DNA from: a virus
Taxonomy: Duplodnaviria > Caudoviricetes
IMG/VR virus record: IMGVR_UViG_3300022407_002384
Coordinates: 1 to 43,138 of that record
DNA length: 43,138 bases
Direction: 5' to 3' (one strand)
Part shown: one piece after another, positions 13,907 through 43,138 of the stretch
Position numbering within the stretch: the stretch's first letter is position 1
How the letters are laid out: every line of letters starts with the position of its first letter
Position numbers and translations under genes: made by a program
The notes under the pieces: model-generated
The model's input: the letters and a program-made list of their open reading frames with translations, nothing else
Databases searched by the model: none
Told to the model about the DNA's origin: nothing

Positions 13907-14252
13907 GCCTGTAGGCCCAACCCCTCGCCGTTCCATGACCAGGGCAAGGCGGCTCCGCATTTACATCGCCTGCAATGGCCGGTGTGTTTGCGGGGTCAAG
14001 GTCCCCATGGAAGGAACGGTTATCGACCACCCGACGCAGTTATGGCTCGGAGGCTCTGACGAGGATCATCTGCTGAAGTTCCTTTGCGACCCTTGCAACA
14101 AGCAAAAGACCGCGAAGGACGCCACTGTCAGGGCCAAGGTCAAGCGCATCATTGCCAAGTCTGACCCTGACGCCCGCAAGCCCTCCCGCATGAAATCCCG
14201 CCCGTTCCCCAAGGGGTCGCGGCCCATACCATCAAGGAAGTTCGGACAATGA
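13896..14252 (+). CDS. Small HNH-family endonuclease
   Basis: C.CG...IDH....LGG.D....L..LC.PCN..KT. Confidence 0.75.
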   Translation: MQREPVGPTPRRSMTRARRLRIYIACNGRCVCGVKVPMEGTVIDHPTQLWLGGSDEDHLLKFLCDPCNKQKTAKDATVRAKVKRIIAKSDPDARKPSRMKSRPFPKGSRPIPSRKFGQ

Positions 14253-14896
14253 CAATTTGGACCGACGAGAAGCGCGCCGACATCGCCAAACTCTGGATGC
14301 AGGGACATTCGGCAACGATCATCGGGCGCCAATACGGCGTCAGTCGCAATTCAATCATTGGGGTTGTGCATCGCATGGGAATGAGCGGCATGCGCGAAGG
14401 CCCGTCCATCCCCATGCGAGACAGCGTGAAATGGTCCCCAGACATGGACGCCAAGCTGATCGAGATGGCGAAAAACAAGCTCAACCGCCAGCAAATGGCT
14501 GACACGCTGGGGCTGACCTATAACCAGGTCCTGTCCCGCACGCGCACGCTGAAGATCACCATCGTTGACGCCCGGTCATTTTCGCTGCCTTCGTTCACGG
14601 GGGCAAGCGGAGCCGGGGCGGCTTCCGCAAAGCGCAAGCGCGAGCTGGGTCAGAGCAAGGCCCCGGCGCGGATTGTGTGCGAGCCTGCTGACCCGAACAT
14701 CAAGGGCTGCACTATCCTGACCATCCCTGCCCGTGGGGCCTGTAGATGGCCGCTGACGGGCTCGGGGGCTGATCTGGTTATGTGCGGCCAGCGGTCAAGC
14801 GATGCGACCTACTGCGGCAAACACCATGCGCTAGCGTTCTCCGCCCCCGCCGTCACCGGAAAGCAGCTTTACAGGAGCATTCGCAGATATGCCTGA
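14249..14896 (+). CDS. gcrA: GcrA-like cell-cycle regulator homolog with an extra HTH
   Basis: WTDE....L...G.SA..I....GVSRNSIIGVVHR N-terminus; CRWP......CG......YC..H...AF C-terminus. Confidence 0.85.
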   Translation: MTIWTDEKRADIAKLWMQGHSATIIGRQYGVSRNSIIGVVHRMGMSGMREGPSIPMRDSVKWSPDMDAKLIEMAKNKLNRQQMADTLGLTYNQVLSRTRTLKITIVDARSFSLPSFTGASGAGAASAKRKRELGQSKAPARIVCEPADPNIKGCTILTIPARGACRWPLTGSGADLVMCGQRSSDATYCGKHHALAFSAPAVTGKQLYRSIRRYA

Positions 14897-17570: not shown

Positions 17571-17761
17571 CCAGAGTTGAAATCCGCCGGCAGGCTGAAT
17601 GCTTCGACTGGTCCGAGTGGTTCGGTGTAGACGACATCGCCTCGCCAAGCCCTCGCCACGTGAGCCGCTACGCAGAGTTGGCGCGCTCAGACCAGACGCC
17701 CGTGATGACGATCCTTCACCGCGCGAACGGGCAGCGCGAGATCATGGGGCGCAATGCATGA
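17567..17761 (+). CDS. Hypothetical protein
   Basis: ATG 17567 overlaps the previous stop. Confidence 0.6.
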   Translation: MTRVEIRRQAECFDWSEWFGVDDIASPSPRHVSRYAELARSDQTPVMTILHRANGQREIMGRNA

Positions 17762-18264
17762 CCTGGTATGTCGCCTATACCGGAGTCCGCCAAGAGCTCC
17801 GCGCCGTCGCATCCCTCGCCGAACGGGGCATTGAAGCCTATGTCCCCTGCGAGAAGCACCTGCGCTCTCACGCACGCATTAAGGACACCGTAGAGCGCCC
17901 GATGCTCCCTCGTTACCTGTTCTTCAAGCTGAACGACGGACAGAGCTTCTACACGGTCAAACAGACGGACGGCATTGAGGGCTTCATCGGTGCCAGCCAG
18001 CCGCAATCTATCCCGTTCGAGTGGGTTCACGAAATCCGCGAACGCGAACGCGCCGGGCACTTTGACTACACCCAAGGCAAGGGGATAACCTACGCCAACG
18101 GCGAGGCGGTGAAGATCATCGGCGGCCCGTTTGCCGGGATGCTCGCCACCATCATGGAGGCCAAGCCGGGCGCAAAGCGGGTGTCGGTGTTCATCAAGGC
18201 GCTCGGGAGGCTTACGGGTGGCCCGGCGAAGATTGCGGTTGGGGATTTGGGGAAGGCGGCGTGA
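17758..18264 (+). CDS. NusG/RfaH-family transcription antitermination factor
   Basis: NGN domain WYVAYT...E......L...GIEAYVP...PMLPRYLF; KOW domain GEAVKIIGGPFAG; lies in the lambda Q position. Confidence 0.9.
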   Translation: MTWYVAYTGVRQELRAVASLAERGIEAYVPCEKHLRSHARIKDTVERPMLPRYLFFKLNDGQSFYTVKQTDGIEGFIGASQPQSIPFEWVHEIRERERAGHFDYTQGKGITYANGEAVKIIGGPFAGMLATIMEAKPGAKRVSVFIKALGRLTGGPAKIAVGDLGKAA

Positions 18265-39522: not shown

Positions 39523-39798
39523 ATGGACTTGAGAGACAGGGCGATAGGCGGGGCTGCGGTAGTCGAGTTCTGCATTCGGCAGATTGAGCATGAACTTGCC
39601 GAAGCGCGGAAGCTGGCGGAAACCGAAGGGCTGGCGACGACGGTTGATCTGATTGACGTGGCCCAAGTCAAAACCCGCAAGGCTCACCGGGCGTTGGAAG
39701 CCCTGCGGACGCAGCTTTCGGCGTCGGTCGGCTCGCCTGATCTCAGCCGGTCTGGTCCGGAAGACAAGCCCGACCCGGAAGAAGACCCGCGCCCGTGA
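39523..39798 (+). CDS. Hypothetical helical protein with acidic/Pro tail
   Basis: GGGAG RBS; GTGA overlap with the next gene. Confidence 0.7.
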   Translation: MDLRDRAIGGAAVVEFCIRQIEHELAEARKLAETEGLATTVDLIDVAQVKTRKAHRALEALRTQLSASVGSPDLSRSGPEDKPDPEEDPRP

Positions 39799-40283
39799 CG
39801 CAGCTTTCGGCCATCTATCTAACGATGACGCTGGGTGTGTTTTTCACATGCTGGCTGGCCTACGGTCTGGACAGGGCCGCAAGCGACGTTTTCACGGCGG
39901 CGACGGTGGTGATGCTGTTCGCGTCTCTTTCCGTGCTGATTCGCATGTGGGTTCCGCCGCCGTGGTCACAAGCGGGGAACCCTGTGCAGGACGTCATTTG
40001 CGCGGCGCTGTTTCTGGGAGCTTACACTGCCACGCGGGCAAAATGGGCGCTGGCGCTGGCGGTCATGTTCGTTATCCAGCTTTCGCTCCATGCCGGATAC
40101 TGGCTAACAGAGGACTTCTCAAACCACGCCCGGCGGGTTTACGCGATCAAGGTCAACACGCTGTATTGCGGCCAGCTCGCCGCGCTATTCATAGCCGGAG
40201 GCGGCCATGTCTTCCGTCGTGGCCTTTATCTCGCTCGTTTGCCTGTTCGGTGGCGTGGCGCTCTTAATCCGCGCGCTGAGTAG
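39795..40283 (+). CDS. Polytopic membrane protein (about 4-5 hydrophobic segments)
   Basis: Repeated hydrophobic stretches and a basic C-terminal tail. Confidence 0.75.
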   Translation: MTQLSAIYLTMTLGVFFTCWLAYGLDRAASDVFTAATVVMLFASLSVLIRMWVPPPWSQAGNPVQDVICAALFLGAYTATRAKWALALAVMFVIQLSLHAGYWLTEDFSNHARRVYAIKVNTLYCGQLAALFIAGGGHVFRRGLYLARLPVRWRGALNPRAE

Positions 40284-40288
40284 CAAGC

Positions 40289-40930
40289 GTGGCAGGGGCG
40301 ATATTCGCTGACGTTCTGAAGTTCGTTCAGGACTGGTCGGCGTTCGGGATAGCCGGTGGGGCCTTGATTGTCCTGCTGGCTGGCAAGGGGCCGCTCACGG
40401 CGCTAGGCCGCTGGCGGGACGCTGTAGCGGCTGCAATTGCCCATCCGTTTCTTGCCGGTGCGCGGGCGGAAAAGCTGGGCAAGGCCGTTCTCGCGGAATT
40501 GAAAACCAACGGCGGCTCATCGTTGAGAGACGCCATCACGCGGATTGAGGAGTTCCAGGTTCGCATGGGCGGGCGTGTTGATCTCGTCATGCTGGCGATG
40601 GATCAAGCCGCTGCGGTTTATGAAACCGACCCCGCCGGTCATTGCTATTGGGCAAGTCCCGCCTATCAGCAGATCACCGGACGCTCTCTCGCGGAGCTTA
40701 ACGGCTGGGGCTGGTCGGTTGTCATCTATCCTGAAGACACTGAACGGGTTCGCGTCGAATGGGAACGCTCTGTGCTGGAGCGGAGATCGTTCAACATGAA
40801 GTTCCGCATGATCCACGCGGACGGCAATGTGTTCCCGGTTCACAGCGTAGCATCGCCTCTGTGGATTGGCGAAGGGCTGAACGCGCGGATTATCGGATGG
40901 TCAGGGCTTGTGACCGTGGAGGATGAATGA
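40289..40930 (+). CDS. Membrane-anchored PAS-domain protein
   Basis: N-terminal TM segment, ELKTNGGSSLRDAITRIE coil, PAS fold VYETD..G...WASPAY..ITG....E..G.GW...IYPED...V...W......F...FRM...DG. Confidence 0.85.
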   Translation: MAGAIFADVLKFVQDWSAFGIAGGALIVLLAGKGPLTALGRWRDAVAAAIAHPFLAGARAEKLGKAVLAELKTNGGSSLRDAITRIEEFQVRMGGRVDLVMLAMDQAAAVYETDPAGHCYWASPAYQQITGRSLAELNGWGWSVVIYPEDTERVRVEWERSVLERRSFNMKFRMIHADGNVFPVHSVASPLWIGEGLNARIIGWSGLVTVEDE

Positions 40931-41292
40931 TCTCCCGCATCTGGAAGGCAATGCTCCTCGCCGGGTCTCTCCGGTTCTGGGCTCAAACAGGCGCGGGCAT
41001 GGCTTTAACGCTGGTGTTCATGGCTTACGGGGCTGTGATCTGGCAGGGGCCGTGGCCTGCTTCTGCGGCGCCGTTGCAGCTTGAATTGCTGGGGCAGGGC
41101 CAGCTTGCGGCGGCTCTCATGGTTCTGGTGGCGCTGGTCTGCATCACGGGCATGAAGCTGGGCGTGTCGGGCGGCAAAGACGGGTTCAAGGCCGACGTAT
41201 CGAAGGACGATGACGAGCCTGTCGCCACGGTGACGACTACAACGACAACCGAGATTGTGGAGCCTAAGGCTACGGGAGCGGGTGGGGGTTAG
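40927..41292 (+). CDS. Holin candidate
   Basis: 121 aa, two hydrophobic segments, charged C-terminus, upstream of the endolysin. Confidence 0.55.
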   Translation: MISRIWKAMLLAGSLRFWAQTGAGMALTLVFMAYGAVIWQGPWPASAAPLQLELLGQGQLAAALMVLVALVCITGMKLGVSGGKDGFKADVSKDDDEPVATVTTTTTTEIVEPKATGAGGG

Positions 41293-41537
41293 GGGCAGAA
41301 CTTGTATGGATACGACGATGCGCTGCGGTTCGCGGCCTGTTGATTTCCAAACTGCGGCTTGAAGTTCTCGTCGACAACCACCTTCATTCCCAACATCGCC
41401 AGACGGTCGATGACAAACTCCGCCCATCCCTTGTCGATTTTGCTGGCCGTCCCTGAATAGGATGTGTGCCCTGCAAGGTTCATTCGCAGCGCAAACATGG
41501 CGTCAGTCATGGCCTTCAGTTCTTTGTTCTCGCTCAT
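41289..41537 (-). CDS. Hypothetical protein on the opposite strand inside the lysis module
   Basis: 82 aa; GGAGG RBS; downstream of the tRNA-like element. Confidence 0.7.
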   Translation of the reverse strand: MSENKELKAMTDAMFALRMNLAGHTSYSGTASKIDKGWAEFVIDRLAMLGMKVVVDENFKPQFGNQQAANRSASSYPYKFCP

Positions 41538-41822: not shown

Positions 41823-42443
41823 ATGAGCCTGATCAATCCGACCAAGTTCGCCGCCTTCGCCCCTCGCGCTCTGCCCGGCACAGTTGCCGCGCTGGAAGCC
41901 GCTGCATCAAAGAGCGGGATTGCAGATCGCCTCGCTCTCGCTCACTGGCTGGGGCAAATGCACGTCGAGAGCGCGGGCTTTTCCAGGCTCTCCGAAAGCC
42001 TCAACTATTCGTCGGAGGCCCTGCTTAAGCTGTTCGGGCGCCATCGTATCAGCGCGGCGGACTGCGACAAGTTCGGTCGCAAGCCGGGCCAGCCTGCCAA
42101 TCAGAACGCGCTTGCCAACATCCTTTACGGCGGGGAGTGGGGACGCAAGAACCTCGGCAACACTGAACCCGGTGACGGCTGGCGGTTTCGGGGCGGCGGG
42201 GTGAAGCAGATCACGGGCCGCGCCAATTATCGGGAGGCGGGCCACGAAGACGATCCCGACATCCTGCGGACGGACATTCAGGCCAGCGCATATGCGGCGG
42301 CAAACTTCTTCGCCCGGCACGGCTGCATCGGGCCAGCTCGCGCCGATGATGTGGAAGGCGTGACGCGCAAGGTGAACGGGGGTCTTATGGGCCTCGCTGA
42401 ACGCATCGCTGCGACCAAGGCGGCAAAGGCGGTGCTGCTGTGA
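41823..42443 (+). CDS. Endolysin, glycoside hydrolase family 19
   Basis: A..LGQ..VES.GF....E.LNYS, GDGWRFRG.G..QITGR.NY, VTR.VNGG..GL.ER; GAGGAG RBS. Confidence 0.92.
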   Translation: MSLINPTKFAAFAPRALPGTVAALEAAASKSGIADRLALAHWLGQMHVESAGFSRLSESLNYSSEALLKLFGRHRISAADCDKFGRKPGQPANQNALANILYGGEWGRKNLGNTEPGDGWRFRGGGVKQITGRANYREAGHEDDPDILRTDIQASAYAAANFFARHGCIGPARADDVEGVTRKVNGGLMGLAERIAATKAAKAVLL

Positions 42444-42577
42444 ACTGGCGCGACCCTCACCGCTTCACGGGGGCGGACCTGTGCGTCATCGGCGGCGTTC
42501 TGGTCGGCGCTGGCGTCGTCTCGCTATTGGCTATTACCGGGGCTCTGTGGGTCGCTCGGATGGTGGTCGGCGGATGA
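42440..42577 (+). CDS. 45-aa single-TM peptide
   Basis: MNWRDPHRFTGADLCVIGGVLVGAGVVSLLAITGALWVARMVVGG; GTGA and ATGA overlaps at both ends. Confidence 0.6.
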   Translation: MNWRDPHRFTGADLCVIGGVLVGAGVVSLLAITGALWVARMVVGG

Positions 42578-42990
42578 ACGCGCTCCTCGGCTTCATCACC
42601 GGACCCGTAGGCCGCTGGATAGTGGCTGCGCTGGCCGTCCTAGCCCTGCTGGCGGGCGTTCACCATCACGGGGTAACTCAGGGCGCGGCGCGGGAGAAGG
42701 CGAAGGCTGACCGGGCGATCAACGATCCCGTGATCGGCTGGCGCGCTCGGCTCAACCAATGCCAGGCGAACGTCAAAACCATCGACGACGCCATAACATC
42801 CCAGAACGCCGCTGTGGCCGCTTGGAAGGCTGAGAGCGCCCAGCGGGCGGAAGCAGCAGCGAAGGCCGTCACGGAAGCCCGCAAGGCCACTGTCGCGGCA
42901 AATCAACGGATAGGCGCTCTCATGGCTGCGAAGTCGGGCGCCGACCAGTGCAAGAGCGCAGAAGACCTGATCGGGAGCATGGCTCGATGA
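42574..42990 (+). CDS. i-spanin (Rz-like)
   Basis: ATG 42574; N-terminal TM followed by an Ala-rich coiled coil; upstream of a lipoprotein gene. Confidence 0.8.
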   Translation: MNALLGFITGPVGRWIVAALAVLALLAGVHHHGVTQGAAREKAKADRAINDPVIGWRARLNQCQANVKTIDDAITSQNAAVAAWKAESAQRAEAAAKAVTEARKATVAANQRIGALMAAKSGADQCKSAEDLIGSMAR

Positions 42991-43138
42991 TCCGCCCCAT
43001 TCTCGCCTGCCTCATCCTCGCCGGGTGCGCCACGACCGACCCAGAGCTGCGCATCGTGACCAAGATTGTGGAAGTTCCAATCGCCGTTCGTTGCGCCGTC
43101 ACCATTCCCGAAGAGCCCGCCTATTCGGATTCAAAGTC
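42987..43138 (+). CDS. o-spanin lipoprotein, 5' part (continues at the window start)
   Basis: MIRPILACLILAGC lipobox; ATGA overlap with the i-spanin. Confidence 0.8.
   Translation, partial: MIRPILACLILAGCATTDPELRIVTKIVEVPIAVRCAVTIPEEPAYSDSK
43011..43136. repeat. Terminal direct repeat, copy 2
   Basis: Identical to 1-126. Confidence 0.95.

Follow-up and report, generated by a model that had tools for sequence, protein, structure and literature searches.

A predicted one-helix membrane protein with a terminal PAS domain in the lysis region of an uncultured phage, a likely remote homologue of the lysis-timing proteins LysF1b and LysA2b

Introduction

LysF1b of mycobacteriophages is described as a protein with one transmembrane domain (TMD) in the N-out/C-in orientation, whose gene is coupled through an ATGA overlap to that of a 2-TMD protein and whose loss cripples lysis (PMC13056207). 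Its authors propose that LysF1b activates the 2-TMD protein, and by their own HHpred analysis LysF1b and LysA2b are assigned to PF10874/DUF2746 (PMC13056207; bioRxiv 10.64898/2026.08.27.747656). The LysA2b protein of phage D29 is encoded among minor tail genes, away from the lysins, and the triggering time was reset when LysF1b of phage Girr was swapped in for it (bioRxiv 10.64898/2026.08.27.747656). Loss of either LysF1b or LysA2b delays or blocks lysis (PMC13056207; bioRxiv 10.64898/2026.08.27.747656).

The DNA analyzed here, referred to as the window, spans an entire virus record (43,138 bases) and is a complete circular assembly, in which bases 1-129 recur at 43010-43138. A protein encoded in its lysis region is compared below with these regulators and with other lysis proteins.

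Results

Architecture of the 213-residue protein

The open reading frame begins with GTG at 40289 and ends with TGA at 40930 (40289..40930, plus strand), and the encoded protein of 213 residues, which combines a TM helix, an NGG module, a predicted coiled coil and a PAS domain, was aligned with 22 other full-length relatives obtained from protein searches (28-91% identity). Hydropathy analysis calls a single TM helix at residues 16-32 (40334..40384, plus strand), which is modestly hydrophobic. An N-out/C-in topology with a cytoplasmic PAS domain is predicted from the positive-inside count, as K and R residues are more numerous after than before the TM in 25/25 PAS lineages with a called TM (5/30 have none called). 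The conserved module ELxxNGGSSLRDAIxRIE occupies residues 70-87 (40496..40549, plus strand), with NGGSSLRD at residues 74-81 and NGGSSLRDAITRIE at residues 74-87; N74, G75, G76, S78 and D81 are invariant in the alignment of 56 rows.

The terminal PAS domain covers residues of about 106-210 (40604..40918, plus strand). The original prediction of a TM helix, a coiled segment and a complete PAS domain with no output domain is borne out, including by the two checks that it had named. PAS_3 (PF08447) of Pfam matches residues 122-203 with a score of 47.1 bits (cut-off 25.6) and an E-value of 2.9e-12. A first structure model, made with 23 rows, was confident in the PAS domain only; with 56 rows, AlphaFold2 gave a mean pLDDT of 82, with values of 91-98 for the PAS domain and 60-72 for residues 31-80, and a continuous helix at residues 53-103 that runs into the PAS domain. 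The Foldseek and VIA matches are PAS folds (best VIA Z 15.9, rmsd 1.8, 103 residues aligned), and among solved structures the closest sequence matches are 3NJA and 3MR0 (E about 1e-6). The chain ends a few residues past the last PAS strand, the tail being 5-22 residues long in 46 family rows, and a DIT-type motif is found in the tail of only 1/46 rows, which indicates that there is no output domain.

Candidate cofactor residues were compared with those of characterized PAS classes. In heme PAS domains of the FixL/DosP and Aer2 types, the His ligand lies in helix F-alpha or E-alpha (PMC10468136). No such His is present in query residues 132-163, which span the E and F helices; across the family, H occurs at position 153 in 11/46 rows and at position 147 in 28/46. 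The flavin-adduct Cys of LOV domains sits in the E-alpha region, and no Cys is present in query residues 132-163 or among the commonest residues of columns 136-159; in the structure matches, LOV folds tie with other PAS folds. FAD-binding PAS domains of the NifL/Aer/MmoS types use a Trp in F-alpha together with a His or Asn (PMC10468136). W158, a candidate counterpart of the FAD Trp, lies in F-alpha in 38/46 rows, and Asn is not among the commonest residues of columns 172-174. The family also carries an H(P)(D/E)D..R-type motif, with H in 28/46 rows and Y in the query; a PAS cluster with this type of motif is described as largely unstudied (PMC10468136).

Selection and the register of the linker

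The PAS domain is under purifying selection in the family, with dN/dS between 0.01 and 0.37 in each of the 71 printed pairs; these are non-independent, were filtered of saturated and near-identical pairs and do not include the gene of the window. The linker between N74 and G117, the first Gly of the PAS domain, measures 41 residues in 14/27 lineage units, and of the 11 lengths that fall outside 41-43, 10 keep the heptad phase (48, 49, 50, 55 and 35; p about 1e-4, with the phase window set post hoc). In the clade of the window phage the linker is 40, 42 or 43, off the modal 41. Long linkers arose repeatedly, with 8 changes on a PAS-only tree and a single clade rejected (p-AU 0.0003); this tree holds 40/56 rows after removal of 16 near-redundant rows, and its support is mostly weak. 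In sensor proteins, linker lengths with a heptad period are a mark of coiled-coil signaling linkers (PMC6798134). The heptad steps nonetheless report on register and not on sensing, and a plain oligomer would also yield heptad indels. Of the sensor-gated lysis timing in the original prediction, selection on the PAS domain and its helical register with the membrane module are in agreement, whereas the query has neither a heme His nor a LOV Cys.

In two close groups the PAS domain is more diverged than the N-terminal half (55-59% vs 80-87% identity): 59% vs 87% for lineages L029/L030 and 57% vs 80% for L048/L055. This divergence suggests domain exchange or changing specificity.

Distribution of the family

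The TM-NGG family is wide and almost purely viral. In a viral scan, at least 600 stretches matched and at least 352 were confirmed, of which the best 80 were kept, so that the sampled loci favor PAS forms and under-sample short forms. The dataset comprises 56 PAS loci, with the window included and its duplicate record left out, and 57 short loci; three short loci in which no gene was called were dropped. Clustering at 60% identity grouped them into 30 lineages of PAS forms and 13 of short forms. The short forms (64-147 aa) consist of the TM and the NGG helix and then end, and such PAS-less forms are found in many phages. A metagenome pattern scan returned 84 loci, from which an HMM confirmed two new PAS forms (L103 and L117), about 20 short forms and the contig of the window itself. 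Additionally, several Atlas look-alike clusters of proteins of 183-205 aa are 99-100% viral, one of them with 1,142 members, and constitute a lead rather than an alignment.

In cellular genomes, the GTDB scan confirmed one locus, which looks like a phage segment and whose host label is possibly a binning effect; 400 genomes of the phylum of that record gave no further match. The close relative L090 (G001), which has a complete lysis cassette, lies in a bin labelled Phycisphaerales, and with no other match among 400 genomes of that phylum this host label is doubtful. Four queries against 50,697 records of cultivated phages found no TM-NGG-PAS protein, one of them returning a PAS-less form only. 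None of 5,194 candidates of 374-2,000 aa scored for residues 1-110, which argues weakly against longer fused forms.

Gp108 of Cellulophaga phage phi19:1 was rejected as a member, being a structural look-alike of separate architecture in which the NGG module is absent (0 bits). This 240-aa TM-helix-PAS-like protein (Foldseek E 1e-4) is encoded within gp105-gp113 (L185:5167-9111), 5' of a lysozyme and after three membrane genes, and is possibly an independent PAS recruitment, in a cultivated phage.

The lysis region of the window phage

The window phage has podovirus-type genes for the terminase, portal, capsid, head closure and DNA ejection. Two regulatory proteins, a homologue of the GcrA cell-cycle regulator and a NusG-type antiterminator, are encoded 5' of the late genes, at 14249-14896 and 17599-18264. 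The GcrA gene points to an alphaproteobacterium as the probable host; among cultivated phages, the nearest match to a neighbor of the PAS gene comes from a Caulobacter phage, and we infer that the host is probably a member of the Caulobacteraceae.

The PAS gene is preceded by the genes of a 91-aa protein with a Pro/acid tail (39523..39798, plus strand), which has kin in the relatives L002 and L011 and is similar to gp297 of Caulobacter phage Magneto, and of a 162-aa multi-TM protein (39795..40283, plus strand), which is 45-65% identical in L002 and L011 and matches Magneto gp298 (phrog_13785) at an hhalign probability of 94.8%. This two-gene module, in which a small helical protein with an acidic Pro-rich tail (xGxExKP...) is followed by a multi-TM protein of phrog_13785, occurs at 39523-40283 of the window, L002:5184-5983, L011:5247-5995 and L198:3547-4342. 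Three related phages have it 5' of the PAS gene, and in Magneto (gp297/gp298) it stands alone; without a known family, it looks like a precursor with a membrane processing or export protein. The pair was rejected as a needed part of the system: in Magneto it occurs without an annotated PAS or lysis gene in the vicinity, and it is missing in L090.

As originally predicted, the PAS gene is ATGA-coupled, through an overlap at 40927-40930, to the gene of a 121-aa protein with two predicted TMs (40927..41292, plus strand). Searches of Pfam and PHROG found no family for this protein, and the label "holin-like" rests on its size, its two predicted TMs and its position. The endolysin (41823..42443, plus strand) follows after a gap of 530 bp, which contains an 82-aa ORF on the opposite strand (41289..41537, minus strand) and about 280 non-coding bases. 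The ORF, which breaks up the cassette, is likely an insertion: its G+C is 0.53 vs about 0.6, and it is absent at the same place in the close relatives L002 and L011, where the 2-TM gene and the endolysin gene overlap. The endolysin is chitinase/GH19-like (phrog_181, E 7.3e-57; a chitinase PHROG at 4e-13), with no predicted TM (0 TM) or signal-anchor, and has no Pfam match, "GH19" being a reasonable label that is not Pfam-based. Downstream of it are a 45-aa 1-TM protein (42440..42577, plus strand), of which a similar small gene lies 3' of the endolysin in L002 and L011; an i-spanin-like protein (42574..42990, plus strand), named from its position and a weak Rz-like match (phrog_1026, E 0.0099); and an o-spanin-like lipoprotein (42987..43138, plus strand), with a lipobox-like sequence recognized by eye, which by the terminal repeat spans the circular junction. 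The predicted location of the PAS gene 5' of a GH19 endolysin and spanins therefore holds as to order and, by phrog_181 (E 7e-57), as to the type of enzyme, although 530 bp with an opposite-strand ORF intervene and GH19 is not a Pfam result.

No sigma-70-type promoter and no Rfam match were found in the region. The segment 41590-41762 (minus strand), whose ends can pair in a tRNA-like manner, was rejected as a structured RNA; it folds no better than shuffles (z -0.11), and the relaxed ARAGORN output is noise.

Neighborhood of the family

With TM counts taken from our own gene caller and a hydropathy rule, small proteins with at least two TMs occupy 14/57 positions at +1/+2 of the PAS gene vs 5/282 positions four or more genes away (p 2e-8), which corresponds to 18-fold odds at +1/+2, and none are found at -1/-2 (0/56). 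Such a gene is present at +1/+2 in 13/30 PAS lineages, and a PHROG lysis label within -3 to +4 in 7/30 (the window, L002, L017, L022, L023, L050 and L090). By one or the other of these two criteria, 15/30 lineages have a lysis neighbor and the other 15 have none, so that the predicted linkage of TM-NGGSS-PAS genes to lysis genes is supported by the 2-TM enrichment and is not seen in half of the lineages. When genes are counted over the representatives of the 29 other lineages, PHROG lysis labels show no significant enrichment near the PAS gene vs far from it (6/179 vs 2/207, p 0.15).

In L002, L011 and L090, the three closest loci with DNA, the PAS gene, a 2-TM gene and a lysin-type gene occur in that order; BLASTP detects no mutual similarity among the 2-TM partners of these three and the window. 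One clade (L025, L041, L048, L103 and L117) retains a single 2-TM family beside the PAS gene at 25-49% identity, and in L048, which has a lysis neighbor by neither criterion, the +1 gene is a homologue of the L041 partner (45% identical). The lineages without a lysis neighbor include five among tail genes (L015, L028, L029, L037 and L053), six among replication, metabolic, integrase or packaging genes (L014, L016, L019, L031, L032 and L034) and two with unannotated small membrane neighbors (L012 and L018). In L045 (3489-8373), also one of these lineages, the gene order is T7-like, and the PAS gene lies between the tail-fiber genes and the small terminase, the holin position in T7. Papain-family (C1) peptidases are encoded 3' of the PAS gene or of its 2-TM neighbor at L037:6545-7459 and L048:6776-7699, where an endolysin would be expected.

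In the short forms, for which hand-picked neighbors were scanned, a wall-hydrolase-type match is found in 6/13 lineages, one of them under the Pfam cut-off. A PAS-less form lies directly 5' of the amidase in Thermobifida phage P1312 and of lysin A in Arthrobacter phage Sonali, and the occurrence of NGGSS.RD motifs in small lysis-cassette membrane proteins of other phages, put forward in the original prediction, is confirmed. The PAS-less NGG protein of P1312 (gp40, L175:4890-5333) is annotated as "sensory protein kinase CreC" and has no Pfam domain. Likewise, many LysA2b homologues are annotated as "minor tail protein".

Kinship with LysF1b and LysA2b

The LysF1b/LysA2b HMM was built from 15 proteins, namely D29 gp30 (LysA2b) and 14 relatives from mycobacteriophages, a Gordonia phage, a Streptomyces phage and five prophage-type viral records; its F1-type row is gp35 of Bubbles123, not of Girr. 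The conserved block of this family, which ends in LRD, aligns gap-free with the NGG block. NGG-module proteins take 33 of the top 35 places on this HMM among 1,522 called phage genes, and 10 bits or more are reached by 33/97 targets, many of them near-copies, vs 1/141 small controls with an N-terminal TM. By lineage, the same score is reached by 9/13 short and 4/30 PAS lineages. Reciprocally, an HMM of the short forms gives the top eight ranks among 1,440 non-target sequences to 8/15 LysF1b-family proteins, and an HMM of the N-terminal half of the PAS forms places only one of them, Pukovnik gp32, clearly first. In profile comparison by hhalign, the short forms reach 93% against the LysF1b/LysA2b family, the N-terminal half of the PAS forms reaches 68%, and these two reach 99.6% against each other. 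The hhalign score of 39.6 exceeds those of all 60 column shuffles (mean 21, max 36.5), one of which came within 3 points; the soluble part alone gives 29%.

The query itself scores 2.2 bits on the LysF1b HMM, which makes its link to LysF1b/LysA2b a transitive one, through the family; for its closest relatives the scores are near 0 or negative. PF10874 matches 0/38 family sequences at E up to 0.5 and gives no match to the query. The charged fraction of query residues 33-105 is 27% vs 50-55% in D29 gp30 and the F1-type gp35, which is borderline relative to the 30-50% typical of the cytoplasmic part of LysF1b/LysA2b proteins. The function of LysF1b is known from mycobacteriophages only, and the host of the window phage is probably an alphaproteobacterium. 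Taken together, the profile tests indicate that the TM-NGG module is likely a remote homologue of the LysF1b/LysA2b lysis-timing proteins. The D29 regulator, which has one TMD, is unlinked from the lysins and can be swapped, which fits the scattered loci and the interchangeable 2-TM partners observed here.

Discussion

A lysis role of the 213-aa protein, all of its possible forms taken together, appears probable. The reading that we tentatively prefer, with a likelihood somewhat short of even, is that of a LysF1b/LysA2b-like lysis timer in which the cytoplasmic PAS domain controls activation of the membrane module via the predicted coiled coil; true ligand gating is possible but doubtful. The protein would accumulate late as a one-pass protein of the inner membrane, oligomerize through the NGG helix and either license the adjacent 2-TM holin-like protein or form a lesion together with it, which would free the cytoplasmic endolysin before the spanins act. 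As there is no C-terminal output domain, any effect of the PAS domain must pass through the preceding helix or a partner, and it may thus signal backwards into that helix. The weakest step is the input, which would be a small cytoplasmic ligand or a partner protein and not heme or a LOV flavin adduct.

The same LysF1b-like regulator might carry a PAS domain that does not sense, serving as a fixed dimerization cap or a steric brake, so that lysis time would have a single intrinsic value. This is unlikely, though far from negligible: the query lacks a heme His and a LOV Cys, the family carries the motif type of a PAS cluster described as largely unstudied (PMC10468136), any oligomer would be expected to show purifying selection and heptad indels, many phages have PAS-less forms, and the PAS domain of VqmA also serves dimerization (bioRxiv 10.1101/2021.04.15.439952). 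However, a domain of 105 residues is kept across 30 lineages although forms of 65-95 aa suffice elsewhere, and the excess divergence of the PAS domain in L029/L030 and L048/L055 fits changing specificity. It is quite unlikely that the protein has no lysis role and shares only the late operon, as a late membrane protein whose PAS domain binds or jams host PAS sensor kinases or which blocks superinfection. The 15/30 lineages with no lysis neighbor, the non-significant PHROG enrichment (p 0.15), the GcrA regulator of the window phage and the unrelated 2-TM partners of the four close loci would be accommodated by such a role, but the 18-fold odds of a small 2-TM gene downstream with 0/56 upstream, the likely kinship with tested lysis regulators and the position of the L045 gene, that of the holin in T7, all argue against it. 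The D29 regulator is moreover itself unlinked from lysins (bioRxiv 10.64898/2026.08.27.747656).

The original prediction also allowed for an antiholin, by which the 2-TM holin would be held inactive until a PAS signal releases it. The ATGA coupling, the single 2-TM family kept at 25-49% identity in the clade of L025, L041, L048, L103 and L117, and the control of a holin by a soluble domain in T4 (PMC13056207) are compatible with this idea. Loss of the likely kin LysF1b and LysA2b, however, delays or blocks lysis, which is the opposite of what an antiholin would give and, by analogy, makes "activator or timer" likelier than "antiholin"; the predicted topology is opposite to that of T, and the partner changes family between close relatives in the clade of the window phage. 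An antiholin is accordingly rated as improbable. A releasin like Mu gp25, which would free a membrane-tethered endolysin with no holin, is very improbable: one TM and a helical cytoplasmic part are described for the releasin (PMC13056207) and one short form has a weak DUF2730 match (E 0.029), yet Mu gp25 scores 3.7 bits on the short HMM and 1.5 bits on the PAS HMM, the endolysin has no predicted TM, and a 2-TM holin-like gene is present.

If the preferred reading of a PAS-controlled, LysF1b-like timer is correct, lysis would be tied to host state post-translationally, through the PAS domain. Burst size is set by lysis time, and in the literature consulted the clock for it resides in holins and their regulators, the printed phage PAS sensor, VqmA, working through transcription. 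No publication on a PAS protein in a lysis cassette was found by titles and abstract starts, with little subscription literature covered. In its widest form, a proposal that we consider possible though rather unlikely, a widespread family of uncultured phages would have placed a ligand-sensing PAS domain on an ancient one-helix lysis timer, a host cytoplasmic signal would set the minute of lysis via the coiled coil with no change of transcription, and LysF1b-type timers would extend beyond mycobacteriophages to phages with spanins. The long-standing question of whether phages purposely adjust lysis to host physiology would become testable with a cassette of four genes. Should the PAS domain not sense at all, the homology still points to a function for a large viral family that lacks annotation (phrog_9869 and the PAS forms) and would bring LysF1b-type control into phages of Gram-negative hosts.

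Among known systems, LysZ of corynephages and the Mu gp25 releasin (DUF2730) are likewise one-TM accessory proteins of lysis cassettes. The releasin differs in that it needs a SAR endolysin, and it gives no meaningful score on the family HMMs. LysZ, set apart here by its description, is proposed to be N-in/C-out and to act on lipoglycans (bioRxiv 10.1101/2025.06.24.661397; PMC13056207). Holin T of T4, to which the original prediction drew an analogy, is also a lysis protein in which one TM is joined to a globular soluble domain, and its lysis time can respond to an outside event; however, T is N-in/C-out with a periplasmic domain (PMC13056207), whereas the family is predicted to be N-out/C-in with a cytoplasmic PAS domain. 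The distinction from T is drawn on topology, and the analogy fails on it; LysZ and T were both rejected as models for their opposite topology. VqmA of vibriophage VP882 is a phage PAS protein that binds the host autoinducer DPO and steers the life cycle, but it is a soluble PAS-HTH transcription factor that decides between lysis and lysogeny (bioRxiv 10.1101/2021.04.15.439952), whereas the 213-aa protein lacks a DNA-binding part, and its action would be at the membrane, directly on lysis. The closest likeness is to LysF1b (Girr gp35 and NormanBulbieJr gp33) and LysA2b (D29 gp30). The 213-aa protein differs from these in its extra PAS domain of 105 residues, in a gene that lies upstream and not downstream of the 2-TM gene, in a charged fraction of 27% vs 50%, in having no PF10874 match and in a probable alphaproteobacterial host with spanins encoded by the phage. 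It resembles them in its single N-terminal TM, the predicted N-out/C-in orientation, the basic residues after the TM, the long cytoplasmic helix and the ATGA coupling to a 2-TM gene, and, as a family, in sometimes lying among tail genes away from lysins.
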